Shown here piece after piece: positions 987 through 38,512 of a stretch of DNA of 53,897 bases. The notes under the pieces are model-generated. The model did no database searches and was not told where the DNA came from. It saw only the letters and a list, made by a program, of their open reading frames with translations. Position numbers and translations under genes: made by a program. Source of the stretch: a virus. Taxonomy: Duplodnaviria > Caudoviricetes. The stretch spans positions 1 through 53,897 of the IMG/VR virus record IMGVR_UViG_3300013094_000063. One strand, written 5' to 3'. Every line of letters begins with the position of its first letter. Positions within the stretch are counted from its first letter, which is position 1.

Positions 987-1167
987 AGCAGATAAAGAAG
1001 TAGGTAGTTGTGGTTGCGGTCGTAGTCCAACAGGTCATTGTATAGGCTGGCACGCCTTGGGTGAAGATGAATATAGAGAGCGTTTGGCCTTATATGAAGA
1101 TACCCAAGCGGCACTGAACAAGATGCCGAACTATATGCCTCCAGGTGCAGGAGCAGGTGGTCAATGA
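976..1167 (+). CDS. Small CDGSH-like (3Cys-1His) iron-sulfur/zinc-binding protein
   Basis: CGCGRSPTGHCIGWH resembles the CDGSH motif C-x-C-x2-S-x5-C-D-G-S-H; AAGGAG RBS upstream. Confidence 0.7.
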   Translation: MQVKADKEVGSCGCGRSPTGHCIGWHALGEDEYRERLALYEDTQAALNKMPNYMPPGAGAGGQ

Positions 1168-1173
1168 TAAATA
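1166..1173 (+). promoter_or_regulatory. T4-late-type promoter box (GATAAATA) for the HNH gene
   Basis: ATAAATA at 1167-1173 overlaps the upstream TGA; same box precedes many structural genes in the window. Confidence 0.7.
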
Positions 1174-1245
1174 ATAGTGGGCGAACGGACTGATCCTCCT
1201 TCTGTGCCAGTAACGCAGATAGCCCCTTATTACTTTACTGGAGTA
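1172..1245 (+). ncRNA. Candidate structured leader RNA: three-way junction plus RBS hairpin, 7-bp kissing loop
   Basis: GGGC 1179-82/GCCC 1222-25; GGA 1187-89/TCC 1197-99; TCTGTG 1201-06/CGCAGA 1214-19 with loop CCAGTAA; TACT 1231-34/AGTA 1242-45 with loop TTACTGG, the exact complement of CCAGTAA. Confidence 0.6.
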
Positions 1246-1251
1246 TCTTAT

Positions 1252-2040
1252 ATGTCTAATGACATTAAACAATACCTTCTCAAAAATTCTGTTCTTCCTA
1301 AAGAACATATTATAGATCGATATCTAAAATTTATCGATTATTATAAAAATATTAAATTCGATGGCTATATCGAAAATCACCATATCATTCCTCGATCGTT
1401 CAAAGGTACTAATGATAAAAACAATCTAATTAAATTAGGTGCCAGACATCATTATATTGCCCACCTGTTATTAGCGAAGGCAACTAATAATCCTAAAATG
1501 ATTAAAGCATTACACAAAATGGTTTATTCAACAAAGGGCGATGTTCAACGTGATTACAAAATTACCAGCAAAATATATGCGTATCTTAGAGAAGAACACG
1601 CAAAGGTTGTTAGCGGTTATAGTAAAAATACAGTAGTCGCCAAACAAATTTATACAGAAGAAATTAAAAGAATTCCTAAAAAATTATTTAATATGTACAA
1701 TGGTATTTTATATGAAGCCTTGGCTAAAAATCGAAAAGATTCAGAAGAAACAAAAATTAAAAAACAAGCCGCTAGCAAAAGGCCGAGAGAGCCGTACAAA
1801 CAAGGATTACGAAGTAGAAGTTTAGCCGCATCTAAATATTCATACAGCACTCCCTTGGGATTTTGCGAGAACAGCAACGATTTATTAAAACTATATCCAA
1901 CATTTACCAAAAATACATTGACTGTATTAGATAATAATGCTATAATAACTAAACGATTTTGCTATTTTCATAAAGATTTTTTTCCGTATATCGGAAAGAC
2001 ATTCGAGGAATACGGCATTACTAAACAGAAAAGGATTTGA
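1252..2040 (+). CDS. Free-standing HNH homing endonuclease (Mob-like)
   Basis: ENHHIIPRSFKGTNDKNNLIKLGARHHYIAHLLL HNH motif, Lys-rich, AT-rich. Start moved from 1177 to ATG 1252 (GGAG at 1240-43). Stop directly abuts queE. Confidence 0.88.
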   Translation: MSNDIKQYLLKNSVLPKEHIIDRYLKFIDYYKNIKFDGYIENHHIIPRSFKGTNDKNNLIKLGARHHYIAHLLLAKATNNPKMIKALHKMVYSTKGDVQRDYKITSKIYAYLREEHAKVVSGYSKNTVVAKQIYTEEIKRIPKKLFNMYNGILYEALAKNRKDSEETKIKKQAASKRPREPYKQGLRSRSLAASKYSYSTPLGFCENSNDLLKLYPTFTKNTLTVLDNNAIITKRFCYFHKDFFPYIGKTFEEYGITKQKRI

Positions 2041-2916
2041 ATGTCAAAATTACATTATACAGAATTATTTTATAGCATACAGGGAGAGGGAAGATATATG
2101 GGAGTCCCAAGTGTCTTCTTGCGTACATTTGGTTGTAATTTCCGTTGCAAGAATTTTGGAAGATATGAAAAAGATATTCTCGGGGTTGATGAAACCCATA
2201 ATCCAGAAGTTGTTGAGTTTATTAAAAATATCGATCAATATAAAACATTCGGTGATTTACCGTTAGCTAAAACCGGATGTGACAGTTATAGTTCTATCTA
2301 TCCAGAATTTAAGAAATTTGTTATTAAAGAAAATTCTAACGAACTAGTAGCTCGAATCATGGAGATCCTGCCATTAGGTCATTGGAGTCAAGAGCATTTG
2401 GTCATAACAGGCGGTGAACCCCTACTAGGTTGGCAACGTGCTTATCCAGATTTACTAGATCATCCAGACATGCAGGATCTCAAAGAGATCACATTTGAAA
2501 CAAATGGTACCCAAAAACTAACTCCAGAATTCAAAGAAGCATTGAGCAAATGGAGGATTTCTAATCATCGGTTGAATAGAGAAATTACATTCAGTGTAAG
2601 TGCCAAACTTCCTTGCAGTGGTGAGAAGTGGGAAGATGCTATCAGACCAGATGTGGTATGTGATTACGAACAGTACGGTACAGCGTATCTCAAATTCGTA
2701 GTGGCTACAGAAGAAGATATCGCAGATGCCGAACGTGCTATAGACGAATTCCAACAGGCAGGATTCTCAGGACAGATTTACCTGATGCCGGTAGGAGGTG
2801 TAGAGAGCGTATATGCCTTAAATAATAAAGCAGTGGCCATGGCGGCTATGAAGCGTGGATTGAGATACAGTGATCGACTTCAAGTTCCCTTGTTCCGCAA
2901 CGCATGGGGAACGTAA
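2041..2916 (+). CDS. queE: 7-carboxy-7-deazaguanine synthase (radical SAM, QueE/NrdG family)
   Basis: ELFYSIQGEG..G.PSVFLRTFGCNFRC, CDS, VITGGEPLL, ITFETNGT, LKFVV, YLMP, RYSDRLQV motifs. Confidence 0.88.
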   Translation: MSKLHYTELFYSIQGEGRYMGVPSVFLRTFGCNFRCKNFGRYEKDILGVDETHNPEVVEFIKNIDQYKTFGDLPLAKTGCDSYSSIYPEFKKFVIKENSNELVARIMEILPLGHWSQEHLVITGGEPLLGWQRAYPDLLDHPDMQDLKEITFETNGTQKLTPEFKEALSKWRISNHRLNREITFSVSAKLPCSGEKWEDAIRPDVVCDYEQYGTAYLKFVVATEEDIADAERAIDEFQQAGFSGQIYLMPVGGVESVYALNNKAVAMAAMKRGLRYSDRLQVPLFRNAWGT

Positions 2917-2924
2917 TTAAAATA

Positions 2925-2970
2925 CCCCATTTATTTGTAAATAGTATAAATACTTTATAAACAAATGGGG
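2925..2970 (+). promoter_or_regulatory. RBS-sequestering hairpin with a late promoter (TATAAATA 2945-2952) in its loop
   Basis: CCCCATTT-a-TTTGTAAA (2925-41) pairs with TTTATAAA-c-AAATGGGG (2954-70); ATG at 2975. Same logic as T4 homing-endonuclease leaders. Confidence 0.8.
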
Positions 2971-2974
2971 AAGT

Positions 2975-3730
2975 ATGTCAAATCCAATAAACAAGAAAAC
3001 AAAAGAACAATTTATAAAAGAAATCCCAATGGAGTTAGGAATAACTATTACTGGTGATTATATCAATACTGATACAAAAATAGAGTATATATGCGAGCAC
3101 GGTACAAATTTATCGTTGCCGTGGCAAATTAAAAAAATGAAATTTTGTTGTCGCAAGGGGTACTATGCAAGTGGCAACATGTGGAAGTCTAACACCAATA
3201 CTATTGAAGATGCAAAAGAAAGAACATTGAGAGATCGCCCAGATACAGATGTATCAAATGTTTATTTTGAATGGGACGGGCGGTATAAAAGACTGTATGG
3301 TATTAGATGTACCATACACAATATTGAATATTCGAGTATATTAGGAAGTAAGGTAGGCATGTGTCCTACCTGTTACAAAGAACAAAATATAAAAAAGATT
3401 TTAGAAGCAGGACCAAAAGCATGGGCAAGTCAATCGACTGGCAGTTTTGTTTCTAAAGCAGAAACTAAATGGTTAGACGGATTAAACATAAAAGATAGAC
3501 AAGTGTGGCTGGAGGATGTAAAATATAAAGTAGATGGATACGATCCTATTACTAATACAGTATATTTGTATCATGGCAGATTCTGGCACGGATGCCCTAA
3601 AACTTTTGATCCAGAAATGATACATCCTATAGTAAAAATACCAATGAAAGATTTATACGAGAAAACTATGTATTACGAAAATAAAATTAAAGAAGCAGGA
3701 TATAATCTTATAGTAGAGTGGGGTACATAA
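2975..3730 (+). CDS. Putative homing endonuclease, Zn-ribbon repeats plus C-terminal Vsr/EDxHD-like nuclease domain
   Basis: ICEHG, CTIH and CPTC metal motifs; SKAETKWLD...VDGYDPITNTVYLYHGRFWHG...GYNLIVEW. Confidence 0.75.
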   Translation: MSNPINKKTKEQFIKEIPMELGITITGDYINTDTKIEYICEHGTNLSLPWQIKKMKFCCRKGYYASGNMWKSNTNTIEDAKERTLRDRPDTDVSNVYFEWDGRYKRLYGIRCTIHNIEYSSILGSKVGMCPTCYKEQNIKKILEAGPKAWASQSTGSFVSKAETKWLDGLNIKDRQVWLEDVKYKVDGYDPITNTVYLYHGRFWHGCPKTFDPEMIHPIVKIPMKDLYEKTMYYENKIKEAGYNLIVEWGT

Positions 3731-10503: not shown

Positions 10504-11757
10504 ATGTCGTCAGTGATGAAAGCAGAGAAAACAGCTAAACCTAAAAAAACTCGTGAGTTTACTGCTGTTGAAAAGAACAAGATCGTAGAAAAACTAGTCA
10601 CTGCTCGTGTAGGCCTACTACTGCGACATCCATTCTTCGGCAATCTGGCTACTCGTTTAGAATTAGTTGATGCTAGTGATTGGTGCTCAACATTGGCTAC
10701 AGATGGTCGTAAATTTTATTACTCAAATGAATTTGTCAACAAGCTGACTCCAAAACAGGCAGAGTTTGGATTCGCACACGAAGTGCTACATAATGTATTC
10801 GATCACATGGGACGCCGAGATGGCAGAGATCCAACATTGTCAAACATCGCCGCTGACTATGCGGCTAATCAGATCCTCAAAGATGAACGTATCGGTGAAG
10901 TTCCCGAGTTTATCAAGATCTTCCAAGATAACAAATACCGTGGTTGGAGTTATGAGCAGATCTATAACGAGCTTTATGATAAAGCAGAGAAGATCGACAT
11001 CAGTGAGTTAGGTGAACTCTTAGACGAACATCTAGATGGTGAAGGTGATGAAGATGGGGATGGAGAAGGTGACGGCAAAGATGGCACAGGTCGTCCTAGA
11101 CTCTCCGCAGAAGAAAAGAAAAAGATACGCGATGAGATCAAAGAAGCCATGGTAGCCGCGGCACAGGCCGCAGGTGCCGGACGTATTCCAGCAGGTGTAG
11201 CACGCATGATCAGTGATTTCACAGAACCAAAGATGGATTGGCGTCAACTGTTACGTATGAGCATACAGAGCATCCTAAAGAGCAACTTCAGCTTCAGCCG
11301 TCCAAACCGTAAATCACAACACTCAGGTGCTGTGTTGCCAGGTATGATGAATGAAGAAACTATCGATGTATCTATCGCTATCGACATGTCAGGCAGTATC
11401 AGCGATAAACAGGCCAAAGACTTCTTATCAGAAGTCAAAGGCATTATGGACGAATATGTAGACTTCAAGTTAGATATCTGGTGCTTTGATACCCAGGTAT
11501 ACAATTATGCCAAATTCACCGGTGACACCGCTGATGAGATCATGAGCTATGAGGTCAAAGGCGGCGGCGGTACTGACTTCGATGTCAATTGGAAGTTTAT
11601 GCAAGATGAAGACATCGTTCCTAAGAAGTTTATCATGTTTACAGACGGATATCCCTGCGGTAGTTGGGGTGATGAGGACTACTGCGATACCCTGTTTATC
11701 ATACATGGCGACGAAACCATAAATGCGCCATTTGGCCAGACCGCTCATTATAAATAA
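10504..11757 (+). CDS. Metallopeptidase-like (HExxH) plus VWA domain protein (DUF2201 type), MoxR partner
   Basis: TLATDG, AHEVLH, NIAAD..N; acidic Gly linker; MIDAS DMSGS, GGGGTDF, FTDG. Confidence 0.9.
   Translation: MSSVMKAEKTAKPKKTREFTAVEKNKIVEKLVTARVGLLLRHPFFGNLATRLELVDASDWCSTLATDGRKFYYSNEFVNKLTPKQAEFGFAHEVLHNVFDHMGRRDGRDPTLSNIAADYAANQILKDERIGEVPEFIKIFQDNKYRGWSYEQIYNELYDKAEKIDISELGELLDEHLDGEGDEDGDGEGDGKDGTGRPRLSAEEKKKIRDEIKEAMVAAAQAAGAGRIPAGVARMISDFTEPKMDWRQLLRMSIQSILKSNFSFSRPNRKSQHSGAVLPGMMNEETIDVSIAIDMSGSISDKQAKDFLSEVKGIMDEYVDFKLDIWCFDTQVYNYAKFTGDTADEIMSYEVKGGGGTDFDVNWKFMQDEDIVPKKFIMFTDGYPCGSWGDEDYCDTLFIIHGDETINAPFGQTAHYK
11749..11756 (+). promoter_or_regulatory. Late promoter TATAAATA
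   Basis: Exact T4 late consensus overlapping the VWA gene stop, 12 nt before ATG 11769. Confidence 0.7.
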
Positions 11758-25069: not shown

Positions 25070-28000
25070 TTATTTGTCCTCTAATGGATCTCCGTTTGAT
25101 AGTGTCAGTGCAAATCCTGATTTGTCTGTTAGATCCGGATCTCCTCCATAATAGTATGCATCTGGCAATTCAGAGGGTTGATTCTGTAGGAACAGGGCCT
25201 GTGTTGACGTGCTCTGCATTAGGCTCAATGTATTACCAGGGTTCATAGGATCTCGATCATTCCATTCTGTTATGGCCGCATAGTCTCTTTTTACAATATC
25301 TACCCTAACAGGTAAGTGTGATTCCAGGGCTTCTGGTATATTTAGCGTAAGTTGCTGGGTCTCGAGATCCACAGTAAATTCTGGTGGTAAGTAGCTGAGT
25401 CCTTGATATTCATAGCCGAGATAACTGTCTAATCTATTAGATCTCGTGTATACCCATACTTGATTGGTATCTGTAGTTATATAGGCAGTATTCAATACAT
25501 TAGTGACGGGTAAATTAAACACTGAAGCCACAGTAGCAGTGGTAGAAGGTACGCTGGGGCTATCGTAGGCCTTGTTAGTATCTTGGTGGAATATTCCTGT
25601 TTTACGTAAGAGTCTGCCGCCATAGTAGACAGCTACTTGATCTTCTGCAGACAAAGGTATCGAACTGTCTACAGGCTGTGTCTGTAGAGTTATTCCATCA
25701 TTCCTAAAGATATAAGGTACACTGGTGCCTGGATCTCCTTGACCAATGAACCAGGCCTGTACCACGTAACTGCCATCATTAGGTTGGGCAGGAATGTCTA
25801 TTTCTATACTGCCGCTTCCTGTTTTGTAAGTTGTGAGATCTGCAGGATCGAAGGCTCCGGTCGCTGTTGATATGGCTACGGTTCCGTAATTTATCTGGAA
25901 ATCAACTTCTACTAGATTGTCATAAGGCGTCTGGCTCTGTATGCTGGCTCCGGTTCCGTTGGATAACTCTACTATCTTTGTATCATAATAGGTAGTAGTG
26001 CTGACAGTATTGATTATGTAGGTATTGGTGGTACCTATATTGATATAGGTCTGTCTATGGATATTTTCTGCATAAGATATAGTCTGGCTGATTCCTTGAT
26101 CGATGACCTTGGTATAGATCTGACTGTAGTGCTTAGGTGCAGTTCCTAGAGTACCTCTACGCAGTTGAGATAAGACATTGTTGCTAATTTTATAATATTC
26201 TATCCGTTCTCCATCGATGATCACGACACCGGGTATACGTTTACTTGGTATAGGACTGCTTAATACGGAAGAATCGTAAACATGTATTTCGGTATCATAG
26301 ACATAGAGAGGCTGTGTTAGATAGGTAGTGTGTTGTTTGCTTAATCTCTTAAACTGAGTGCGATTGAACATGTCAGTGAATATTCTATAGCCCAATACCG
26401 GATCGCCTTTAGAATTCACGCTGGTAATTATGACTTCTTTTACTTGATCTCCGGTGAACTGATCTGCGACCTGTACAGTGCGTAGGTCATCTAACACGAC
26501 AAAATCGATCTTGTTGATTAAAAATTCCCCGTTTACACTGACCCAAAGATAATTGCTGTTGATCACAGGTCGACTGACCTGATATGCTCCGCTTGTGTTG
26601 CCACTGAATATCTGGGTTTCCATCAATAGAGAATCTTGTTGATTAAATGTTATAACAGTGATCAAATCGCCCGGATTAAGCGGTGTTGCAGGAGTCTGTC
26701 CCGGATCAGTTGATAAGATCAAATTATTGCCCTTGACACGGAAATCATAATTTAGGGCATCATTCAGTGCATATGATATAATTGCCAGTGTATCGCCATA
26801 GGCCAACACCCCAGGAATCGCCACTATGGTCGAATCAGCAAGAGTATAATCATAGCCATAGGCCAATAGTTGACCATTTTTATATGCTCTTACATTTAAG
26901 TTTGTAAAGGGATCTCTATAAGTTCCAAAGCTAGTCGGAATATTGAACGTAGTAGTGACACCGGTATATTGATAATAGGCAATGTCCGGTGGCATGAGTC
27001 GTTTGGTACCTTGATCATTGATCACGTCAACTATCATATTACCTTCAGCAGGACCGGTAGTGCCTGGAGGATAAGTCATGATAAAAGAACTGGTAGATCC
27101 GTCATAGACAAATGACTGTTTCTGTATCTCATTGAAGGACTTGTAGTCACTGTCAAAGAACCATGCCTGTGCTAGATGAGCCGAAGCCGTGGATACATTA
27201 TATATATTCACTGCGGTTCTACGATTCGCGACTGCGTCAACTGTGGTTAATTCATAGTAGGGAGTTGAAGTAGACACTTCTTGAGATATTCCTACACCGT
27301 CTAGAGTCACATAGGCAGATTTCAATAGACTGTCATATGCTCCTAGACTACGTAGTTGTATGCTATCAGTTCCCACAGTGGTAGATTGGTAACTGTAGTC
27401 TACATATTCTGTTCCTTCGACTGTTATTATAGTATAACCAACCACTGCAATATAAGGTTGCGGAGCTACGATCAATAAAGAATTAGCCCAATCTATAGAA
27501 AATTGATTTGTAGAGGTCCAGTTAGTTGACGAATTATACTCAAGTACTGTGTTGTCAAATGTATTTTCTAAATTTACTATGACACCTATACTGTTGGAAT
27601 TAGGAGGTAAAATATCTAATTTAATGCTAATAGTGGTGTTGGCTGCCATACCAAAATATGACGAAAATACCAAAGGAGCACCCGTTGGCCCTTTGGTATA
27701 TACATTTATTCCCAGGCTGTCAGTCGCTTGCCCCGATATTAGTTCTTCTGGAATGAACCCTATATTGTCAGTATAAAACCCGTCCCCATCAACCATCAAG
27801 TTATTTGAATTGACATTTCCGCCTAATAGATATAAACCTGTAGCAGTGTTTAGAGCAAAATCATTCGGTTGGATACCTAGATATGTCATCCAGCTACTGG
27901 AGTTTGAATTATTCCACGATGTAGCTGACGTTGCGACATCTAGGATGCTAAAGTCAGTATTATTACTCCAGAATTCTATAGAAGTACCTGCTGGTATATC

Positions 28001-31000
28001 TCTCCTAGACCCTACCACAGAATTTATTGTAACAGTATTAGTCAAGGTATTGATACCTATAACCATAACCGATGATGTGGTAAATGGAGTAGTATCGTAT
28101 CCTATCACATTGGCATATTGATATAGCTTGATGCCGGCCACCGATGTTAACTCTACTGTAGTGACATTACCTATAGAACTAGAAGTTGTTATAGATGTAA
28201 TAACAGAATAATCAGATACTGCATCATTCCATGCAAATGTGTCGTATGCAGGATAGGGTTCAGTCCAGGCACTGGTATGATCAAATCTGGCACCTTGTAA
28301 TTGCATCCCAGTGTAGGTTAATCCGGAAGTAACTGTGCTAAAATCTGTAACAGAAGTAAAATATCCTATACGTTCAACAGCAGACATCAATTCTACATTT
28401 TTCTTATACCTGATCACAACTATTTGATCACGCTTGGGAATATAATTTAAGAAAACCAATTTACTGTATTTTTTATTATAACCGTTATAGCTACTAGTAT
28501 AATATTTGATCGTGTAATCAGCTATTAAAACTAGATCATTGTCTAATGTCACATCGATCGTCTGTTTATCTGCTTGTGCTAACCACGATAATACAAATTC
28601 AGAGTTGCTTCCATCGCAGTAAAATTCATCAACAACATCAACATTGCCTATTTGGCTCGCTGAAGAAATCCTATCAAATTTAATATCTATAGTATTGGTT
28701 CTGATCCGTCCATTGACTAGATTCAATGAAACTGTAGCTGTTGTTCCTGTGGTTCCTCCTACTATCGAAACAGTAGGCGTTTGTGTATAACCCGATCCAG
28801 GATCGACAACTTCGATGAGATATATTTTTCCACCACCGATATATGCCTGAGCAGTAGCAGTAGTTCCCGACGCTAGATCAGGACTGCTGATTTCTATCGC
28901 AGGTACCGAGGTATATTTTGATCCAGGGTTGATGACGTTGATCGCAGATACACTGTAAGAATAATTATCACTCCATGATTTCCAAGGATACACATTGGTC
29001 AGGGTACTATTGACTTCTACAGTTTCAAATGCTCCGTCTGTGAGGTTATAGTAAGAAGGTAAATCAAAATCTGTATTATAAGAATATTCAAGATCTAGTG
29101 TTGTTTGATTAGTGATAAAATTCCTAATCTGCGTATGATAAGGTTTGACTTCGTTGATATAGTCTTCAAAATAAGCACTATTGGTCAACTTGTATACAGG
29201 ACGTTGATCTAGATTGCCGGCATAGTTTACAACATTTATAAATGTAGTCTTGAATGCCCAGTCTAACAGTTTCTGTTCATATAAGGCATATTTGACTGCT
29301 GTGAAGAAAAACCGATTCCAATTGATTTTTAATTCATCGACAAATATATTATTTTTTAATGCTGATAAAATGTATTCTAATTCAAGATCAGGTGCTTGGT
29401 TATATAGAGTCGTATCAAAATTATTGTATTCGTCGAATCCCAATTGACTGTCTGGAACATCCCATAGGTTGTTACTTAGTTGTATAGTACCGTTCTGTTT
29501 CCATAGCAGATCATAATTATTGCTAAATGTACCATAAGTCGACGAAGTAGGAGTCACGATAGCTGACAGGCCATTTCCTATATTTTTGATCTTGATATAT
29601 TGACCAGGCACTGCCTCGACTAGTGTGCTTAATTCATAGGTCGAATCAACTGTATAGTCGATTATCTTGTATTGGTTGAACCCTGTACTGCTGTAGTCTA
29701 CATAGTCCCAATATAGGGTGGTATTATAGCTCTGTGTATGTATCCTCGCCCATCTATTATTATATGCGTCCCAGGTATGCTTAGACCAACGGCCACCAGC
29801 TTCGCTGTCGCTGAGCACTATGACTGTATAACCTCTCACGGTCAATTCAGGGGCAGAATAATAACCACTTCCTGCCTCAACTATGGTAGCAGATACGATC
29901 TGTCCTAGTTCGTTGATTTCTGTAGTGATCACTGCTGGAGTAGTTGAATCTCCTGTTATCTGTACAGTAGGAGATATCAAATAACCATAGCCGGGATTGA
30001 CGATATCAACCGAAACTACTTGACCATCATATATAGTAGCAGTTAGATTGGCTATGGTGTTAACCGTAAATGCCCGAGTATTGACAGCATCTCTATCTGA
30101 CAGTGTTTCGACAACTTGATCCCATTGGTGACTATATTGGTCAGGAACAGATTCTGATTTATTGAGATTTTCAAAACTATAGTTTCCTGTTATAGGCAAA
30201 TTGATAAGAATACCATTGGTAAAATCTAATAAATTTCTCAAGGCCTGGAATCTATCTACGAATAGACCTTGACGAGGACGGATGCCGACACCATGTGCCT
30301 GTCGAGGATTGAGAGCAGGATCGGGAACTAGATTTCCTTGACTATCGTGACCTATGAGACTGTCTAGCAATTTCTTTTCTAGCAGACTGTTAGGCAGACT
30401 GGTCTGGCTGTTTTCCTGCAACAACAACCATTCTGTATGTCTAGGAACATTGTCTGGATTTAGATCCATCGAGATATTGAGATTGATTCTCGTTCCTACT
30501 GGAGTAGAACCTATATTGGCTAGCGCCATGGCGTCTGCACTTATCGGAGTCGCATATTGTAGACCATAGGCTAGAGGATCTGCTATTATGCTGGCTACCT
30601 GATAAGCACTGATTCTGCGAGAATTAGTCGCAGGAACAACCACTGTGTTTTTTACCCAATAGTAGTAGTAATTACTTAGAGAATCTGTGATCGGATCATA
30701 GGTCTGTTTAACAGCTACAGAAGAATCATCCGGGTATTTAGGTTGTCCACTGATACCTTGGGTCAATCCTGTTACAGTGTCAGCTTGACTGCTCCATTGA
30801 CTAGGCAATAAACTACTGCCTACCCACTCATAAACATCTATACTAGATCCAGGGAATGTTGATCCCCAGTTATTTTTCCTATATTCTAGATCACCCTGTT
30901 CATACCATTGATATTTTACTGTGCTTAGATCCCACCATAGATCCCCTACATGATCATCAGTCCAGTTGGTCGAAGGATTAACCACTGTACCGGTTGATCC

Positions 31001-34000
31001 CACGGCATATACAGCAGGATCGAATAGAGATTTATATTTTATTTCTTGATCAGCTAGACCGGATATATAGCCTTTAGCAGGATCTATAGTTTCTAGATAG
31101 TTGATTACCTTTTCATTATAGGTGTCGATCAATACTAGTCTTTGTATAGTGCTGATGTCAACTAGGTCTTCTTGTGATCTGTAGGCTTCCCAACTGAGTG
31201 CGGCTGTGCTGGTGCTGAAATATTGATAGAAGAAGGATCCTGTTGACTGATTATCGATCGCAGGAGCTCCTACAAATATCGTGTTGTCTTGTGCAATCTG
31301 CAGACTGAAGCCATGGTCTAGTCCTTGATAGGCATCGTGTGGAGGTAGTTCCTCACTGAGGACAAATCTATTGTGCTTTCTATTGTATACATACACAGTT
31401 CCTGTGCGTTCAACTTCAGTAAAGAAATCAGTAGTGCCGCTGTCATCTATTGTAGACACAGTGCTGACTATTTTCTTTCCTCCGATATTTCTAATTTGAT
31501 TTTCGTCGAAGGTAGTGTTGATATAATCTGTACCCAATGCAGATATCACTAGTATGTCTAAAGAATCATTGATCACAATGTCATGACCAAACTTCATTTT
31601 AGAATTGACTAGAGGATTATCTAGGATCTGTACCGTAGCTGTGTTGAACGATCCATTGTTATTTTGGTAGATAGCCACACGACCATATGATTGATTGTTA
31701 TCCGAATAGCTGTATTCATCTAGGGCGCTGACGATTAGGTAACTGCCATCTGCACTGACTTCGACATGCGATCCAAACCCGCCTCCTGCTAAGAACGGCG
31801 ACTGTATGACCTGACTAGTTGCTGTTCCATTAAAGATATGAACTAATCCTGTTCGATCATTGTAACCAGGAGCACCCACGGCGATAACAGTGCCATCACT
31901 GGATCCGCTGATACTGTGTCCCCACTGCATACCGGGTGTAGAGGCTACCGTTGTTAGACTGTTGATATAATTTATGACCAGTGTGGTCGTAGATCCTGTG
32001 GTGAAACTTCCAACTCGATAAGCATATACAGAACCCACAGATGTGGTATCTCCAGGAGCACTGACCAATAATAATTTAGAACTGGTGTTTAACTGGACAT
32101 AGAGACCTGATCCAAAATGTTCTCGACTCTGTGGATAAGGGCTGATCAGAGTCAACAGTCTAGTTTCTTCGTTGCTGACAGGATCTATACTGCTGATAGT
32201 AACTAGACCTTGTTCGACATAACTAGAAGCCGAAGCACCTACCGTGGTTCTAACTACCGCAGAATTCACTGCTCCGACCATAGTGGCTGTAGAGTAGGCA
32301 TAACTGGTTTTAGGAGCACCAGCAAATATCAGTCCGCTGTTGGTTCCCGGATATTGATAATCATCGTATGCTACCGCAGACCCAAATCCAGTCGCAGTGG
32401 AAACTGTTTGATTATAGTAGGGCCTGTTTTCATCAGGATTTAGGAAATATCTAAACCTTGGTATAGGATTGCCATTTACCTTGACATAGGCAGTTACCTT
32501 ACCGTATCCAGCATAGTTCTTAATTGGATCAGGACAGGTAGGACTACCTACCATGAACAATCTATCACCGCCAATCTTACTGATACTATAGCCCAGCTGT
32601 TCATTATAGCCCTTGATACCGTTGGTAACCGGCATAGGATAATAGTTTTGTATTTTGTTGTATACCGTCCAGCGGCCCTTGCCATCTTCTAGATCGCTGT
32701 CGACCCAGAATAGAGAACCTTCAGGCAAAGACAACAATTCAGCATCATTGGGTAAGGTATCAAAGGTCTTGGCCCGTGCTGTAGAAAATTTATAGATCTG
32801 ACCAGCACCGATTGACAGCGTAGAATCTATCGTCTGTATAGTAGATGCTATGCTAAACTGATTGTTAGAAACTATAGACTGTACAATATAGACACCATTC
32901 AATTGGCTGGTATATTTGACTAGGGAAACTATATCACCGGCTGACAGGCCGTGAGGTTTATCAGTTGTAAAAATTATTTCTTGTCCATACACGCCGATCT
33001 CAGCATTGACAACACTGGATTGAGACAGACTATATCTTAGTATATCCCAATCTCCATTTTGTTTGAATCCCAGCCAGGCCGTGTCTCCTAGGTTGATCAT
33101 GTCATTATTTGTTATAGACAGTAGACTATTTTCATTATAGACAGTATAGGTTACATCATCAGATCTTGCATAACCTGCTGTGGGTAATATGTAGGTTCCG
33201 GTCGTAGTATAAAACGTATGTGCAGGATCATAGTTATCGGGTACGATGGCCCAATTGCTAGCTGTGCTGTAATATATTAGACTGTTGCCAGAGGGTAGAG
33301 AATCGACATAATTGATGATCTGCGGATTCTCAAAGAATGTTCCTTCTACTAGAGTAGTTTCTAATTCTTTGTAGGTAGAAAAACTACCGTATTCGCCTAT
33401 ACGGAATGCCCATTCTTCATTATAGTCGATAGTTCCTTGGAAATTTTGTACAGTGGCCTTGGACAACTTTTGAACGGCATTTCGAGTTCCTTTTTCACGG
33501 ATGAATCCTTGATAAAATTTATATTGAGCGATAGGATCTGTAAAAATATTATTTAGATAAACTCGAGGAGTATAGCCTGTGAGATGCTGAGCCATCTTCT
33601 GTTGAGAAGAATCGAAGTTATCAATATCTAAACTATAGAAATCCTGGAACTGATTTATTTTATAATCAAAATTAGGCAGTAGTCCACCTTGAGGTTTCTG
33701 TTCTAGTGCTATCCAATTAGTGACATCAAATGTCGATGCTGGCTCTAGATTTGCCTTGGCAGAATAATAAGTACCATTGTACTGTACTACCTGTGCAGAT
33801 TTATAAGCAGTATTGATCTTCCAATTGCTTATCTCGACATCGTCATAGACAAATCCAGGACTGTATAAATCTCCAGTCCAATCCTTAGTACGGAATCCGC
33901 TCAATTTCATACGCTGTTGCTGATAACCAGTTTCTATGTCATAGATAACATCATTGAAAATGGTCGCATTATTAAAGACCAGACTGTGTTCTTTCTGTAC

Positions 34001-37000
34001 TGAATTTAATCTAGCAAAATAAATTCCGTCGGTAGAAGTAGTAGCCGAGATAATACAGACACCCGCCTGTCTATTGACAAACAAATTATCTTTAGGGAAA
34101 GGTGTTCCGTTGGCCAGTAATAAACTGTATTCATAAAACGTATCAAATAGATTGTCTACAACGCTTTCTTTATAGGAATATTTTATCTGGTCGGCGAAAG
34201 GGCTCAGTGTGATGACATTATTGGCAGCCCAGTTCTGTGTGGTCCAATATAAAAATTCTTTTCCTGAAAATTCCCAATTGATAACATCATTGATCTTGCT
34301 GTTATATTCATCAAATATAAATCCTTGATCTTTCAACCAAGCGCCGTATCCCACTATGATATCATATACTGCCTGTATAGAACCGAATTCCATACCATAG
34401 GGAATCTCTTTTACCACACTGTCAAACTTGTTAGCTATCTGGACAGCGGCACCTCCTGTGGTAGGTAGACCCGGTAACATCTGATAGTAATCTGAATTAA
34501 AACTAGATTCTGCTTGATGACTGATTTTTACTCTATAGTAAGAACCGCCATATGATACGATCTGTCCAGCCTGATAAAACAGGCCACCAGCTCCAACAGC
34601 CGTGGTAGTTTCGACTCCGGTTAACAGACTTCCACCGGCAACAGAACCGTTGGTCCATACTACATAGGGTTCGCTGACACCTCCTACTGTGATAGAAGGA
34701 GTATTGGATGTGCGGATCGGAGTATAGACGCTGAAATAAGGAGACTGCGTGTCGTATCCCTTGATCACAAAAGTTCCATTAGGAGTCTTCTGTACCACCA
34801 TTCCTGATATGCTGGCAGAAATAATAGGATTGCTGACATTCAATCGCAGTGTATAATCTTCAATAGGCAATATAGCACCGGGACTGTTGCTGTTTGGTTC
34901 GTAAGCATCTATGGTAATCTGTAGTTTGTCTTTGCTGACGAATCCACCTACCTTATAAAATAGATTAAAATTAGCATAGCTTAGGTCACTGCGTAATTCT
35001 GAAATATAGTTCTTTGTACGGCGGCTACCTACTTCACTGATCAATTGACTGTATCCGCTGGTCAACTTAGCATTTTCGCCGTGTATGACTAGATCTGTAA
35101 AATTAAAAAATGCGTTGTTACTATAGGTCCACTGACCAGCAATGTTTTTACTGACTCTACTGAGATCATACATCAGTGCGGCGTAGGTAGCTGGTTTAGT
35201 CAGAGCCAATAGGCGTTGTACGGCAAAGGGATAATAACTGCTTCGTCTCCAGGCTGTTTCAACCGGTGCTTGATCTCCGAACTGCCAATTCTGTCTGCGG
35301 TTATATATAGTTACGTTCTGTATCAAAGTAGAAGGATCTACGAGATTTCCACTGATGTCAACGGGAACCAATCCATTTTCTATGATTCCAGGTCTAGCGT
35401 AGACGCTGTAGGTGCCAGCACGCGGGCCCTGACGTATGATTCCTGCTTCAACATCCTGCCATAGAGATTGATATTTTCCTGCATACTCACCTATCCACCA
35501 ATCTGGTTCTTCTGTAAAACCAAACATTTCCCAAGGATTGGTATGAGGGCGATCAGTATCGTATAGATATTTGTAGATACCTCTCCAATAACCTCCTACG
35601 TGTATCCCCAAGGAAGGAATATAACCTCCGAGATAATTCCAGGTAAATGGATCAGCTTCGTCAAATATGGTATTGGCAGTATAATCAACTCCGTTGAGAC
35701 CGGACCACTTGATGAATCCTGACTCCAGTATGTCGGTAGCTTCGCTGAAGCTATATTGACTATTCCTAAAAGCACCCGGAATAACCGAATTGATGTCAAA
35801 CAACTCTGCTCTATACTGTGATTTAATATTGTTATAGATACGTTTTTCAAATTCTAATAATACATCATCTCTGAAGTCATCAAATGCCACTGTGATACTA
35901 CCATCGTGACCTTGTATCACTGTCCTCGGAACCACATAGGTATCGTCTACATATTTTGTTGGATAAAAGCTCGGATATAGTCCCAATTTAGTCGGCGTTG
36001 GAGGCACATAGCAACCGCTGGTATTTGGATATTCTACTACAGTAACGACGTCTCCTTCAGACAACTGTACAAGTACTGTGACGAAAGAGTCGTGTTCTAC
36101 GAAGACATAATCTCGATTCAATACCAACTGTACTCCGTTTAGATAGACCAATACAGAACGTAGATTCAATTCTGTAGTAGAAAACGGACTGCTGATACTG
36201 AAGACATAGTTAGATCTCGTCACGGTATAGGAATTGACCGTCTTATCAGTACCGTGTCCTATCATATCTGATATGTAGTAGGAACTCTGAGGAGTTTTAT
36301 CTTGATTTATTACAGATAAGATTTCGTCGAGAAGAGCCGTTGGATCCTGTTGATCTGTTACTCTATTCATCTGTGCTATGATCTGACTCTTATATTGATT
36401 ATAGTCATTGGCAACAGAATTTATAGCATCAATGATGCTGTGTTCTTTTTTTCCTACGAACATGTCAGCAAAGGCAATAGGATTGATATTAGATATCAAT
36501 CGTGTACCATATTGACTTATATTGGTCAAATCTCTTAGATTACTGGCTCCTGGAAACGATCCCACAAACCCAGGAATCCGTTCAACCATAGTATGTACGT
36601 GATCGCTAAGTTCTGAAAGAGTAAACTGTGAGATCGGACCATTCAACGGATTATTTGTAAGACCTAGAGGTGGTTCATAATATCCGCTAGATGTGATAGA
36701 AGCAGTGGTATAGAATTTCAACAATACATTGGTGCCAGTGTTTAACGTGCTGTTGAAATTTATCTGATAGGTTCCAGAACTAACAGTAGTAAAGGTAGCA
36801 TCATTAGGTAATATTTTAGTGTCTAGATAAGCTTCATATTCAAAAGTCGCAGGAGTTTCTATTGCCGATACTGCGATAGAATTGGTAGCAGTGATTACAG
36901 TTTGGAACTGTATAATAGGTACACTATAGTCGGTTGATGTAGACCATACATTCACATATTGTTCGCCACCTGTGTGTACAAATTTCAAATAAGTCTGACT

Positions 37001-38512
37001 TGCGGGAATCACGGTGACATTCTGAGATCCTGCCACTACGGCGATGGTATCTGTCATAAAATAATTTGAAAACAGATAGTCGCCCTGTTCTACAGCATTG
37101 CGATATTTTAGAGGAAATCCTAGATACGGATCACTGGTTCCGGTCCCTAGAGTATATCCGAATATCTTCGATCCTAGGAAATTACTAGGAAGATTGATTT
37201 TATCGCTATAGCTTATACCTTGATCAGTAAACAGATCAAACAGGGGTGCTTGATTTAGCGAAGTGTGCTGTTGAGACAGCTGCCAATTGACGCCGTTGTA
37301 CCACCAATCAGTTCCGTTGTTTTCTACTCCAAGGTCGATAGTTACCTGAGATCCCACTGCTACTGTAGTTGACTCGACTAACTCTAATTGATAAGTTCCT
37401 GCTGTGACATTGACTTCGTAGATCATCTCGGGATTAGGAGAAGCATTGAATATTATCCTATTGCCCTTTTGTAACAATACTTGATCAATGTAGTAGCCAA
37501 AAGTACCATTGATCACAGAGGGGTCAACTATGGTATTGTCAATGAATTCGATATTGGGAATACCAATGGTTCCATGATTATATAATTTTAGATCCGCGGC
37601 AAATTCTATGATAGGACGCTGTGCTCTATATTCTGAAGGATATTCGACCAATCTACCCTGTGCCTCAGCAGTTATACGGATCACATCAGAATGTACCCAT
37701 CGATTATATCTGCTCCAGGAATTGATATCTCGACTGGCCCGATTGATAGTTATGTATTCCGGAATTAGAGGAAGCTTTTCTGTGTCATCAAATTTATAGT
37801 AGTCAAAATCGTATGTGCCAAATCTGTCCTTGAACTGACTAGCAATGGGTTCAGGCGTGATCAATGTTTCTACATCTACTAGTCTAATACCTTGATCTGT
37901 TCCCACACCTTCTACAAAATATGATTTTTGATAATACTGCGTACCTTCGAGCTCAGTATTGATAAATTTTAATCGTAATCCGTTGGTTAAGGTTAATCCA
38001 GTGCTGGGGTTGGTGTAGGTCTGTTGGCCTAAGATGTTTTCTACGATGGTAATTAGATCTTCGTTGACCGGAATCTCGTCTGGTCCTTCGACCAACCAAT
38101 AGTATTCTTGATAGTTGATCAATTTGTCCCAGTCGATCCAAGGATTATAACTATAGAAATCACTGCGTAGCAGTCTATCTAGATTATTGGTCTTTCCACC
38201 TTTGACTGCTATTTCGTCAATTAGATCATCGAGAGCTATAACATCCTGTATTTCATAAACAGCATTGTTGACCACCAGTGCAGGAGTTAGTTGATAGTCT
38301 CTGCGTAGGGGAAGACTTTCTGGTATGTAGACATCACTGGTAGAAACATAGTTAGGTGTATTTTTAGATCCTATATATCCGCTGATGCGTTCTAGCTGTG
38401 CTGGTCGAATCCATTGATCAAGAGTAGCGGATAAAAATTTAGAATTTTTATCAGTTCTTAGGTATTCAGGTAAAAAATTTATCGAACTTATTGTGCTGGT
38501 ACTAGCGGCCAT
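25070..38512 (-). CDS. Giant (4480 aa) virion structural protein, probable baseplate wedge (gp7-like position)
   Basis: 13.4-kb open frame directly after the gp6-like gene; starts FLPEYLRT..N.KFL..TLDQ; contains FG-GAP-like propeller repeats (FG..V, VGAPG), PG.GY...P.V.I repeats and YQAGQIVSYGGSYY-type modules. Confidence 0.85.
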   Translation of the reverse strand: MAASTSTISSINFLPEYLRTDKNSKFLSATLDQWIRPAQLERISGYIGSKNTPNYVSTSDVYIPESLPLRRDYQLTPALVVNNAVYEIQDVIALDDLIDEIAVKGGKTNNLDRLLRSDFYSYNPWIDWDKLINYQEYYWLVEGPDEIPVNEDLITIVENILGQQTYTNPSTGLTLTNGLRLKFINTELEGTQYYQKSYFVEGVGTDQGIRLVDVETLITPEPIASQFKDRFGTYDFDYYKFDDTEKLPLIPEYITINRASRDINSWSRYNRWVHSDVIRITAEAQGRLVEYPSEYRAQRPIIEFAADLKLYNHGTIGIPNIEFIDNTIVDPSVINGTFGYYIDQVLLQKGNRIIFNASPNPEMIYEVNVTAGTYQLELVESTTVAVGSQVTIDLGVENNGTDWWYNGVNWQLSQQHTSLNQAPLFDLFTDQGISYSDKINLPSNFLGSKIFGYTLGTGTSDPYLGFPLKYRNAVEQGDYLFSNYFMTDTIAVVAGSQNVTVIPASQTYLKFVHTGGEQYVNVWSTSTDYSVPIIQFQTVITATNSIAVSAIETPATFEYEAYLDTKILPNDATFTTVSSGTYQINFNSTLNTGTNVLLKFYTTASITSSGYYEPPLGLTNNPLNGPISQFTLSELSDHVHTMVERIPGFVGSFPGASNLRDLTNISQYGTRLISNINPIAFADMFVGKKEHSIIDAINSVANDYNQYKSQIIAQMNRVTDQQDPTALLDEILSVINQDKTPQSSYYISDMIGHGTDKTVNSYTVTRSNYVFSISSPFSTTELNLRSVLVYLNGVQLVLNRDYVFVEHDSFVTVLVQLSEGDVVTVVEYPNTSGCYVPPTPTKLGLYPSFYPTKYVDDTYVVPRTVIQGHDGSITVAFDDFRDDVLLEFEKRIYNNIKSQYRAELFDINSVIPGAFRNSQYSFSEATDILESGFIKWSGLNGVDYTANTIFDEADPFTWNYLGGYIPSLGIHVGGYWRGIYKYLYDTDRPHTNPWEMFGFTEEPDWWIGEYAGKYQSLWQDVEAGIIRQGPRAGTYSVYARPGIIENGLVPVDISGNLVDPSTLIQNVTIYNRRQNWQFGDQAPVETAWRRSSYYPFAVQRLLALTKPATYAALMYDLSRVSKNIAGQWTYSNNAFFNFTDLVIHGENAKLTSGYSQLISEVGSRRTKNYISELRSDLSYANFNLFYKVGGFVSKDKLQITIDAYEPNSNSPGAILPIEDYTLRLNVSNPIISASISGMVVQKTPNGTFVIKGYDTQSPYFSVYTPIRTSNTPSITVGGVSEPYVVWTNGSVAGGSLLTGVETTTAVGAGGLFYQAGQIVSYGGSYYRVKISHQAESSFNSDYYQMLPGLPTTGGAAVQIANKFDSVVKEIPYGMEFGSIQAVYDIIVGYGAWLKDQGFIFDEYNSKINDVINWEFSGKEFLYWTTQNWAANNVITLSPFADQIKYSYKESVVDNLFDTFYEYSLLLANGTPFPKDNLFVNRQAGVCIISATTSTDGIYFARLNSVQKEHSLVFNNATIFNDVIYDIETGYQQQRMKLSGFRTKDWTGDLYSPGFVYDDVEISNWKINTAYKSAQVVQYNGTYYSAKANLEPASTFDVTNWIALEQKPQGGLLPNFDYKINQFQDFYSLDIDNFDSSQQKMAQHLTGYTPRVYLNNIFTDPIAQYKFYQGFIREKGTRNAVQKLSKATVQNFQGTIDYNEEWAFRIGEYGSFSTYKELETTLVEGTFFENPQIINYVDSLPSGNSLIYYSTASNWAIVPDNYDPAHTFYTTTGTYILPTAGYARSDDVTYTVYNENSLLSITNNDMINLGDTAWLGFKQNGDWDILRYSLSQSSVVNAEIGVYGQEIIFTTDKPHGLSAGDIVSLVKYTSQLNGVYIVQSIVSNNQFSIASTIQTIDSTLSIGAGQIYKFSTARAKTFDTLPNDAELLSLPEGSLFWVDSDLEDGKGRWTVYNKIQNYYPMPVTNGIKGYNEQLGYSISKIGGDRLFMVGSPTCPDPIKNYAGYGKVTAYVKVNGNPIPRFRYFLNPDENRPYYNQTVSTATGFGSAVAYDDYQYPGTNSGLIFAGAPKTSYAYSTATMVGAVNSAVVRTTVGASASSYVEQGLVTISSIDPVSNEETRLLTLISPYPQSREHFGSGLYVQLNTSSKLLLVSAPGDTTSVGSVYAYRVGSFTTGSTTTLVINYINSLTTVASTPGMQWGHSISGSSDGTVIAVGAPGYNDRTGLVHIFNGTATSQVIQSPFLAGGGFGSHVEVSADGSYLIVSALDEYSYSDNNQSYGRVAIYQNNNGSFNTATVQILDNPLVNSKMKFGHDIVINDSLDILVISALGTDYINTTFDENQIRNIGGKKIVSTVSTIDDSGTTDFFTEVERTGTVYVYNRKHNRFVLSEELPPHDAYQGLDHGFSLQIAQDNTIFVGAPAIDNQSTGSFFYQYFSTSTAALSWEAYRSQEDLVDISTIQRLVLIDTYNEKVINYLETIDPAKGYISGLADQEIKYKSLFDPAVYAVGSTGTVVNPSTNWTDDHVGDLWWDLSTVKYQWYEQGDLEYRKNNWGSTFPGSSIDVYEWVGSSLLPSQWSSQADTVTGLTQGISGQPKYPDDSSVAVKQTYDPITDSLSNYYYYWVKNTVVVPATNSRRISAYQVASIIADPLAYGLQYATPISADAMALANIGSTPVGTRINLNISMDLNPDNVPRHTEWLLLQENSQTSLPNSLLEKKLLDSLIGHDSQGNLVPDPALNPRQAHGVGIRPRQGLFVDRFQALRNLLDFTNGILINLPITGNYSFENLNKSESVPDQYSHQWDQVVETLSDRDAVNTRAFTVNTIANLTATIYDGQVVSVDIVNPGYGYLISPTVQITGDSTTPAVITTEINELGQIVSATIVEAGSGYYSAPELTVRGYTVIVLSDSEAGGRWSKHTWDAYNNRWARIHTQSYNTTLYWDYVDYSSTGFNQYKIIDYTVDSTYELSTLVEAVPGQYIKIKNIGNGLSAIVTPTSSTYGTFSNNYDLLWKQNGTIQLSNNLWDVPDSQLGFDEYNNFDTTLYNQAPDLELEYILSALKNNIFVDELKINWNRFFFTAVKYALYEQKLLDWAFKTTFINVVNYAGNLDQRPVYKLTNSAYFEDYINEVKPYHTQIRNFITNQTTLDLEYSYNTDFDLPSYYNLTDGAFETVEVNSTLTNVYPWKSWSDNYSYSVSAINVINPGSKYTSVPAIEISSPDLASGTTATAQAYIGGGKIYLIEVVDPGSGYTQTPTVSIVGGTTGTTATVSLNLVNGRIRTNTIDIKFDRISSASQIGNVDVVDEFYCDGSNSEFVLSWLAQADKQTIDVTLDNDLVLIADYTIKYYTSSYNGYNKKYSKLVFLNYIPKRDQIVVIRYKKNVELMSAVERIGYFTSVTDFSTVTSGLTYTGMQLQGARFDHTSAWTEPYPAYDTFAWNDAVSDYSVITSITTSSSIGNVTTVELTSVAGIKLYQYANVIGYDTTPFTTSSVMVIGINTLTNTVTINSVVGSRRDIPAGTSIEFWSNNTDFSILDVATSATSWNNSNSSSWMTYLGIQPNDFALNTATGLYLLGGNVNSNNLMVDGDGFYTDNIGFIPEELISGQATDSLGINVYTKGPTGAPLVFSSYFGMAANTTISIKLDILPPNSNSIGVIVNLENTFDNTVLEYNSSTNWTSTNQFSIDWANSLLIVAPQPYIAVVGYTIITVEGTEYVDYSYQSTTVGTDSIQLRSLGAYDSLLKSAYVTLDGVGISQEVSTSTPYYELTTVDAVANRRTAVNIYNVSTASAHLAQAWFFDSDYKSFNEIQKQSFVYDGSTSSFIMTYPPGTTGPAEGNMIVDVINDQGTKRLMPPDIAYYQYTGVTTTFNIPTSFGTYRDPFTNLNVRAYKNGQLLAYGYDYTLADSTIVAIPGVLAYGDTLAIISYALNDALNYDFRVKGNNLILSTDPGQTPATPLNPGDLITVITFNQQDSLLMETQIFSGNTSGAYQVSRPVINSNYLWVSVNGEFLINKIDFVVLDDLRTVQVADQFTGDQVKEVIITSVNSKGDPVLGYRIFTDMFNRTQFKRLSKQHTTYLTQPLYVYDTEIHVYDSSVLSSPIPSKRIPGVVIIDGERIEYYKISNNVLSQLRRGTLGTAPKHYSQIYTKVIDQGISQTISYAENIHRQTYINIGTTNTYIINTVSTTTYYDTKIVELSNGTGASIQSQTPYDNLVEVDFQINYGTVAISTATGAFDPADLTTYKTGSGSIEIDIPAQPNDGSYVVQAWFIGQGDPGTSVPYIFRNDGITLQTQPVDSSIPLSAEDQVAVYYGGRLLRKTGIFHQDTNKAYDSPSVPSTTATVASVFNLPVTNVLNTAYITTDTNQVWVYTRSNRLDSYLGYEYQGLSYLPPEFTVDLETQQLTLNIPEALESHLPVRVDIVKRDYAAITEWNDRDPMNPGNTLSLMQSTSTQALFLQNQPSELPDAYYYGGDPDLTDKSGFALTLSNGDPLEDK

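Follow-up and report, generated by a model that had tools for sequence, protein, structure and literature searches.

The leader and its locus

The stretch of DNA considered here, hereafter the window, comprises all 53,897 nucleotides (nt) of IMG/VR record IMGVR_UViG_3300013094_000063, a fragment of an uncultured virus that is estimated to be 15% complete. Our subject is a leader at 1179-1245, which lies between a late-type promoter box and a free-standing gene for an HNH homing endonuclease, and in which the Shine-Dalgarno sequence (SD) of that gene is shared between a hairpin loop and the stem below it. An earlier reading of the letters alone, referred to here as the original prediction, had described a multi-stem leader after the late-type box, one loop of which pairs with the loop of a hairpin holding the ribosome-binding site (RBS). 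Direct reading finds the four helices and the 7-nt loop-loop complement where they had been predicted, and the covariation among homologues described below supports the proposal. The parts of the leader and its gene are as follows.

1167-1173, plus strand: late-type promoter box ATAAATA, 5 nt 5′ of P1, read from the sequence
1179-1182 with 1222-1225, plus strand: helix P1, GGGC with GCCC, closing P2 and P3
1183-1186, plus strand: J1/2, junction strand GAAC
1187-1199, plus strand: P2 hairpin, GGA (1187-1189) with TCC (1197-1199), loop CTGATCC
1201-1219, plus strand: P3 hairpin, TCTGTG (1201-1206) with CGCAGA (1214-1219), one G-U pair
1207-1213, plus strand: loop 1, the P3 loop CCAGTAA, which is the anti-SD loop
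1220-1225, plus strand: J3/1 TA, then the P1 3′ arm GCCC
1226-1230, plus strand: linker CTTAT, from P1 to P4
1231-1245, plus strand: P4 (SD hairpin), TACT (1231-1234) with AGTA (1242-1245)
1235-1241, plus strand: loop 2, the P4 loop TTACTGG, exact reverse complement of loop 1 (1207-1213)
1240-1243, plus strand: SD GGAG, straddling the boundary of loop 2 and the P4 3′ arm
1252-1254, plus strand: start codon ATG of the HNH gene
1252-2040, plus strand: free-standing HNH homing endonuclease gene, 262 amino acids (aa), MobE-like, phrog_655 (E 1e-34)

Relatives of the leader

The comparison is based on 34 copies of the leader from viral and metagenome contigs, 32 of which are distinct in the core. 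Thirty-two leaders were parsed by position, with loop 2 defined as the stretch of n bases whose last two are the first two purines of the SD, and L402 and L412 were read by eye. Copies were reached by two kinds of search. Patterns of leader DNA gave true copies in 8 of 9 stretches, 21 of 58, 22 of 51 (metagenome contigs) and 33 of 37, the rest being unrelated; the loose pattern GAACGGA..TCCTTCT returned mostly chance matches, with the leader in 3 of 78 new loci among the matches listed. On the protein side, the HNH protein as query led to three loci with the same leader, situated behind a homologue of the 63-aa open reading frame (ORF) that lies upstream in the window, a dCMP-deaminase-like gene and a HIT gene. 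A MobE-like protein profile, which is blind to the leader, gave 21 loci, 20 of them with upstream DNA, and the leader stands in 12 of these 20, including the two new variants L402 and L412. The homologues were thus reached only through exact-word patterns or one protein family, which bounds the breadth of the leader family as described here. L403-L409 and L399 are MobE-like homologues, 62-76% identical, that in place of the leader either overlap the preceding ORF or have a plain SD.

Covariance models detected no second copy of the leader in the window or in 80 related loci, and each of the five larger records holds a single copy. In prokaryote genomes 62 pattern matches were obtained, none convincing with model R2; the best is partial (E 0.033), with a loop that has no downstream complement. 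Rfam 15 yielded no match at gathering score in the whole window; with the cutoff relaxed to E 10, the region 1100-1320 gave only three matches, all at chance level (E 3-5). The region 900-2100 has no match by DNA similarity to named phages, and full-text literature searches found no paper on such a leader.

Covariation and conservation of the structure

Loop 1 and loop 2 are fully Watson-Crick complementary, over 6/6 or 7/7 positions, in all 34 leaders; the loop of L004 was scored 7/9 solely through an A·C closing pair. There are 11 loop-1 alleles, and each faces a perfectly complementary loop 2: CCAGTAA/TTACTGG, CCAGTA/TACTGG, CCAATA/TATTGG, CCGAAT/ATTCGG, CCAACT/AGTTGG, CCACTA/TAGTGG, CTGTACT/AGTACAG, CCTTATT/AATAAGG, CCGTAAT/ATTACGG, CTCACGT/ACGTGAG and CTTACT/AGTAAG. 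When loop 2 was permuted among the alleles, none of 100000 runs reached 11 matches, the maximum being 7. The SD is divided by the same rule in all 32 parsed leaders: its first two purines are the last bases of loop 2, and what remains lies in the P4 3′ arm. The homologues were checked for loss of the loop-loop complementarity on which the original prediction depends; it is kept in 34/34, and the loops covary.

MAFFT and model alignments misplace loop 2 or P4 where loop length or linker differs, so the loop-loop helix was counted only on the nine leaders with six-nt loops (alignment A5, eight distinct, L176 having been dropped for a MAFFT misalignment), and P4 was excluded from A6 and A9. On A5, four of the six loop-loop pairs changed on both sides while 100% of cells were paired. 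The covariation score was reached by 0 of 500 shuffles, and sliding the partners by 1-3 columns left zero double changes. On A9, which holds all 34 leaders (32 distinct) model-fitted to the structure with P4 left out, both sides changed in 2/4 pairs of P1, 2/3 of P2 and 3/6 of P3; 99.8% of cells were paired, and for P1 the figure was 100% across the 32 distinct rows. The covariation in P2 depends on the protein-found leaders, with AGA/TCT in L402 and AGG/CCT in L412. For P4, position parsing gave 4/4 pairs in 31 of 32 leaders, in 11 combinations of arms.

The compensatory changes are of the RNA type, G-U pairs included. Among the relatives the P2 loop has nine sequence forms, the P3 stem measures 5-8 bp, and the linker from P1 to P4 varies in sequence and length (3-6 nt among 22 close leaders). 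J1/2 is GAAC in 21 and GAAA in one of the 22 leaders found with patterns that left J1/2 free, and AAAC in the protein-found L402. The distance from P1 to the ATG ranges from 67 to 87 nt and takes all three frames, with in-frame stops in 17 of 30 leaders; the leader is non-coding.

This body of comparison argues decisively that the leader is a real structured RNA under selection, all five of its helices being backed by compensatory changes. P3 and P4 are two covarying stems with loops complementary over their whole length, as expected of an intramolecular kissing loop. The SD is base-paired, with covariation, in a conserved structure upstream of a homing endonuclease ORF, as in the hairpins of T4-type phages, and a covarying structured domain is joined to a platform that overlaps the SD, as in riboswitches.

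It is the comparison of relatives, and not the statistics of the single sequence, that excludes chance. Judged on the window sequence alone, the structure could have been no more than chance. The minimum-energy fold of 1167-1260 (RNAfold) is the same three-way junction, and perfect 7-nt inverted pairs with arms 10-40 nt apart number 163 in the window against a mean of 123 in shuffles. Nested folding (ViennaRNA) leaves the loop-loop helix out of the energy score, and nested partition functions for 32 leaders were inconsistent among members.

Other candidate features of the leader were set aside. The 13-nt perfect complement between 939-951 and 1227-1239 (within-window E about 0.13) is probably due to chance, and its upstream arm lies in a host gene, outside the cassette. 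A hammerhead-like reading of CUGAUC in the P2 loop fails, as that loop varies among its nine forms and no Rfam ribozyme matches. The anti-SD-like CCTCC at 1195-1199 is not conserved, relatives having CATCC and others.

The endonuclease cassette and its neighbourhoods

The HNH ORF is 34% identical to T4 mobE (tblastn). Its stop codon (2038-2040) abuts the ATG of queE at 2041, and on the other side the stop codon of the 63-aa ORF (1165-1167) shares a base with the late box. Two further features are needed here.

2041-2916, plus strand: queE, phrog_2076 QueE-like (E 4.5e-48)
1168-2346, plus strand: segment not aligning to relative L005, containing the late box, the leader, the HNH gene and about 300 nt of the queE 5′ end

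The relative L005 is 98% identical in the upstream 63-aa ORF, and its DNA aligns with 94.4% identity up to 1167 (blastn); the alignment resumes at window position 2347 with 93.5% identity, leaving 1168-2346 unaligned. L005 and L006 have no endonuclease, and in both the stop of the 63-aa ORF overlaps the start of queE as ATGA. Relative to L005, 1168-2346 is an insertion or replacement, and about 300 nt of the queE 5′ end (2041-2346) appears to have come along with the cassette. In L085 (2045-2135, minus strand), the same cassette stands after codon 18 of a resident queE, with a full queE of the window type behind it. Given the usual behaviour of free-standing homing endonucleases, this pattern and that of 2041-2346 resemble a co-conversion tract whose homing target would lie in the conserved 5′ end of queE. 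We regard queE as the probable homing target region, a neighbour and not a regulated part of the leader element.

The genes behind the leader are of one kind, their surroundings are not. Of 30 downstream ORFs, 23 match phrog_655 (homing endonuclease) and four match phrog_681. When 10 representative ones were compared with endonuclease families, nine matched (HNH_3, NUMOD3, phrog_314, 374, 681 and 1872), the ORF behind L309 having no family match, and in L203 and L315 no ORF of at least 40 aa starts near the leader. The leader travels with homing endonuclease genes of several families, in other neighbourhoods. No association with a single metabolic or transport pathway, as would be expected of a riboswitch, is seen: what follows the leader is homing endonucleases from several PHROG families, and their neighbours differ. 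The suggestion in the original prediction that the leader also controls queE finds no support, since the 94%-identical relative that has neither leader nor HNH gene joins the 63-aa ORF to queE by ATGA. Its speculation about the sensing of a 7-deazaguanine metabolite is likewise unsupported, as the same leader precedes endonucleases whose upstream neighbours include a HIT gene and a dCMP-deaminase-like gene.

Late promoter context

ATAAATA occurs at 13 sites in the window, 10 of them on the coding strand just upstream of ORF starts; as a word it is no commoner than in shuffles. A late-type box precedes 24 of the 34 leaders, in 20 of those at 5 nt from P1, and the other 10 leaders are without one. 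A late sigma of the gp55 family is encoded in four of the five larger leader-bearing records (E 1e-24 to 1e-26). T4-type late transcripts begin about six bases after the box, which would place the 5′ end of the late transcript at about G1179, and the P1 5′ arm (1179-1182) probably lies at or near that end. Since the anti-SD loop (1207-1213) is downstream of the late box (1167-1173), late transcripts would keep the inhibitory loop; late transcripts freed of an inhibitory 5′ arm, which characterize the T4 paradigm, are not what the window layout predicts.

An inhibition specific to read-through transcripts, in which the late box and the DNA upstream of it would pair with the SD region, was considered and is not family-wide: such pairing does not exceed chance in the window (z -0.10), and it reaches significance (z < -1.64) in only 9 of 32 leaders. 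Within the HNH_3 subgroup, L093, L168 and L194 have a segment about 25 nt before P1, on the 5′ side of the late box, whose pairing with the SD region scores z -3.7 to -5.2 relative to shuffled upstream sequence. These three join the classical promoter-in-hairpin logic to the kissing-loop leader.

Contigs from RNA libraries cover 960-1190, 1041-1191, 1293-1443, 2056-2206 and 2212-2300. The stretch is therefore present in metatranscriptome libraries, in contigs that mark neither transcript ends, strand nor level, and the gaps between them carry no weight. Two of them (960-1190 and 1041-1191), from libraries of two studies, end at adjacent positions of the P2 loop, a weak and possibly accidental hint of an RNA end or a reverse transcriptase stop.

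Proposed mechanism and alternatives

We consider it probable that 1179-1245 is the cis-acting 5′ leader of a mobile cassette (late promoter, leader and endonuclease) and that it throttles or gates translation of the endonuclease. The three-way junction, in which P1 closes P2 and P3, would present the 6-7 nt P3 loop to the P4 loop, its role being to hold loop 1 in a hairpin beside P4. Of the SD, the first two purines would be matched by the two leading bases of loop 1 and the remainder would pair in P4, the loop-loop helix and P4 together burying the whole SD. P4 alone is marginal (probability 0.08 in the window by nested partition function), so the loop-loop helix is what would bury the SD. 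Initiation of endonuclease translation would be held down or gated independently of the insertion site. With the anti-SD loop placed 3′ of the late box, the repression would act on read-through and late transcripts alike. That the leader represses translation is predicted from the sequences, as is the formation of all the helices at once, in a kissing complex.

Several observations weigh against this reading. Besides the marginal P4, the fold energy of 1167-1260 is ordinary (z -0.15, with 84 of 200 shuffles folding as well). The leader is absent from 8 of the 20 MobE-like homologues with upstream DNA, seven of the eight representing one locus type, so that even among members of a single endonuclease family it is optional. 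The search patterns fixed segments of P2, of P3 and of the junction strands, and most of the conservation in the junction strands is thus imposed by the search. A weak SD would be a simpler throttle than four helices, which hints at a conditional role, and a late promoter driving a self-silenced message departs from the T4 logic and needs explaining. This departure, together with the complexity of the fold, keeps a conditional switch and a two-state element open as alternatives. As a conditional switch, the junction would be a sensor, riboswitch-like or protein-responsive, and the docking of loop 1 on the SD hairpin would depend on its state. The signal might be a metabolite, Mg2+, or a late phage or host protein that licenses endonuclease translation. 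The leader would then be a new RNA class for selfish homing endonucleases, with the SD released only on a late-infection or co-infection signal and the endonuclease made when a target genome is present. We hold this to be unlikely, though it deserves some weight: the architecture is that of an aptamer with an SD-pseudoknot platform, the junction strands (RAAM / U / UA) and junction-proximal pairs are constant while distal stems and loops vary, the fold is more elaborate than simple throttling requires, and a release mechanism would be sensible where late transcripts retain the anti-SD. It is opposed by the lack of any Rfam match at gathering score or above chance at E up to 10, by selfish endonucleases of several families in unrelated neighbourhoods that offer no metabolic pointer to a ligand, and by the part of the search patterns in the junction conservation; nor was a conserved alternative pairing found, the upstream pairing being at chance in the window and significant in only the 9 of 32 leaders mentioned above.

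A two-state element, in which the long-range helix of loop 1 with loop 2 would form only when P1, P3 and P4 are melted, the folds being mutually exclusive, seems to us distinctly unlikely. In some members (for example L085 and L315) the fold with the loop-loop helix forced as a nested helix equals the unconstrained minimum energy, as it does in L004, L162, L313 and L316 in short context, and the window comes within about 3 kcal/mol. However, P1, P3 and P4 covary along with the loop-loop helix, and in every allele the complementarity begins and ends with the two hairpin loops, which is what loop-loop docking predicts and a simple alternative helix does not. Very unlikely, in our judgement, is an element for the stability or processing of the mRNA 5′ end, whether a 5′-terminal P1 protecting the late mRNA or a nuclease site, to which the SD pairing would be secondary. 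The position of P1, 5 nt after the late box in 20 of 24 box-bearing leaders and so near the T4-type late start, would suit it, as would the weak hint of the contigs stopping at 1190 and 1191, but the 10 boxless leaders lie inside longer transcripts, stability would not demand that loop 2 always end in the SD, and the contigs are no marker of RNA ends. Hardly credible, finally, is a leader of queE or 7-deazaguanine metabolism, or the lack of any RNA element, the structure being a chance fold, an N-terminal extension of the protein from GTG 1177 or a DNA site of the endonuclease. It is true that queE abuts the HNH stop and that the frame is open from 1177 in the window. Yet the leader is missing where queE stands without the endonuclease and present without an adjoining queE; the variety of frames and the stops in 17 of 30 leaders speak against a coding extension, and the RNA-type compensatory changes against the absence of an RNA; and a leader common to unrelated endonuclease families is not the site of one enzyme. 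The comparative data contradict the queE or 7-deazaguanine role, the coding extension and chance alike.

Comparison with known systems

The closest known systems are found in T4-type phages. According to two reviews, RNA structures that sequester the RBS limit the translation of I-TevI, I-TevII, I-TevIII, Aeh1 mobE and segB, and in T4-type endonuclease genes a late promoter placed inside the hairpin frees the RBS on late transcripts (PMC2988022, PMC3014915). By the same accounts, the hairpins of the T4-type endonuclease genes and of gene e resemble the window leader in having their own late promoter of the TATAAATA type together with an RNA structure that base-pairs the SD (PMC2988022, PMC3014915). 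The classical form, as portrayed there, is a single stable hairpin with the late promoter inside it or at its 5′ arm, so that late transcripts escape repression. In the window leader, by contrast, the late box lies upstream of the three-way junction, one hairpin loop of which is the anti-SD; the SD is divided between a loop-loop helix and a 4-bp stem; and several endonuclease families are served.

The window also holds a design of the classical kind. A second endonuclease-like ORF at 2975-3730 matches phrog_681/559 (E about 1e-6), and 2918-3715 is absent from L005. In the stable hairpin that precedes the ORF (2925-2970; -16.8 kcal/mol, z -3.85), TATAAATA (2945-2952) occupies the upper part and the 3′ arm contains the SD. 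We read 2918-3730 as a classical T4-type late-only design that stands side by side with the kissing-loop design.

Translational riboswitches such as preQ1-III and SAM-II have a pseudoknotted expression platform, and like the window leader they pair a loop of the structured domain with downstream nucleotides of the RBS. The leader differs from them in that its gene context suggests no ligand, no Rfam family matches it, and the genes downstream are selfish endonucleases. Kissing-loop or loop-to-RBS controls are also known from plasmid replication, namely ColE1 RNA I/II, R1 CopA/CopT and the IncI-alpha repZ pseudoknot. These share with the leader fully complementary hairpin loops of 6-7 nt, or a hairpin loop that pairs beside the RBS, but they act in trans or activate translation, whereas the leader is intramolecular and covers the SD itself. 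The PeSL cassettes of T4-type phages, reportedly composites of an early promoter and a stem-loop terminator, resemble it as short conserved regulatory modules that occur with variable genes and move between genome positions. The leader is instead a late box and a translational leader tied to endonuclease genes, and 1167-1254 contains no early promoter with a terminator-like stem-loop, having neither a T-run nor a terminator.

Other features of the window

A third endonuclease gene lies at 10504-11757 (phrog_1314 HNH endonuclease, E 1e-107). It has a sigma-70-like TTGACC...TATAAT promoter upstream and neither kind of leader. On the minus strand, 25070-38512 is an ORF of 4480 aa within a run of large minus-strand ORFs, several of which are preceded by ATAAATA; these are presumably structural or fibre genes of a jumbo phage.

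Significance

Elements of this general kind, in which RNA structure covers the RBS of a homing endonuclease gene in a phage, are known. What is new here is how the leader is built, that several endonuclease families share it, and where it stands relative to the promoter. The leader supplies a well-supported RNA motif without an Rfam 15 match and a rare natural case of an intramolecular kissing loop over the SD. Being compact and apparently independent of context, it would form a translation module that is directly testable and possibly reusable, and if it is true that the junction senses something, this would be the first sensor of its sort linked to a selfish element. Homing endonucleases have to be expressed enough to spread and little enough to spare the phage, a balance known to be struck by a simple hairpin together with the placement of the promoter. 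The kissing-loop leader would be a second, portable solution to this problem, common to several unrelated endonuclease families in uncultured lake phages.

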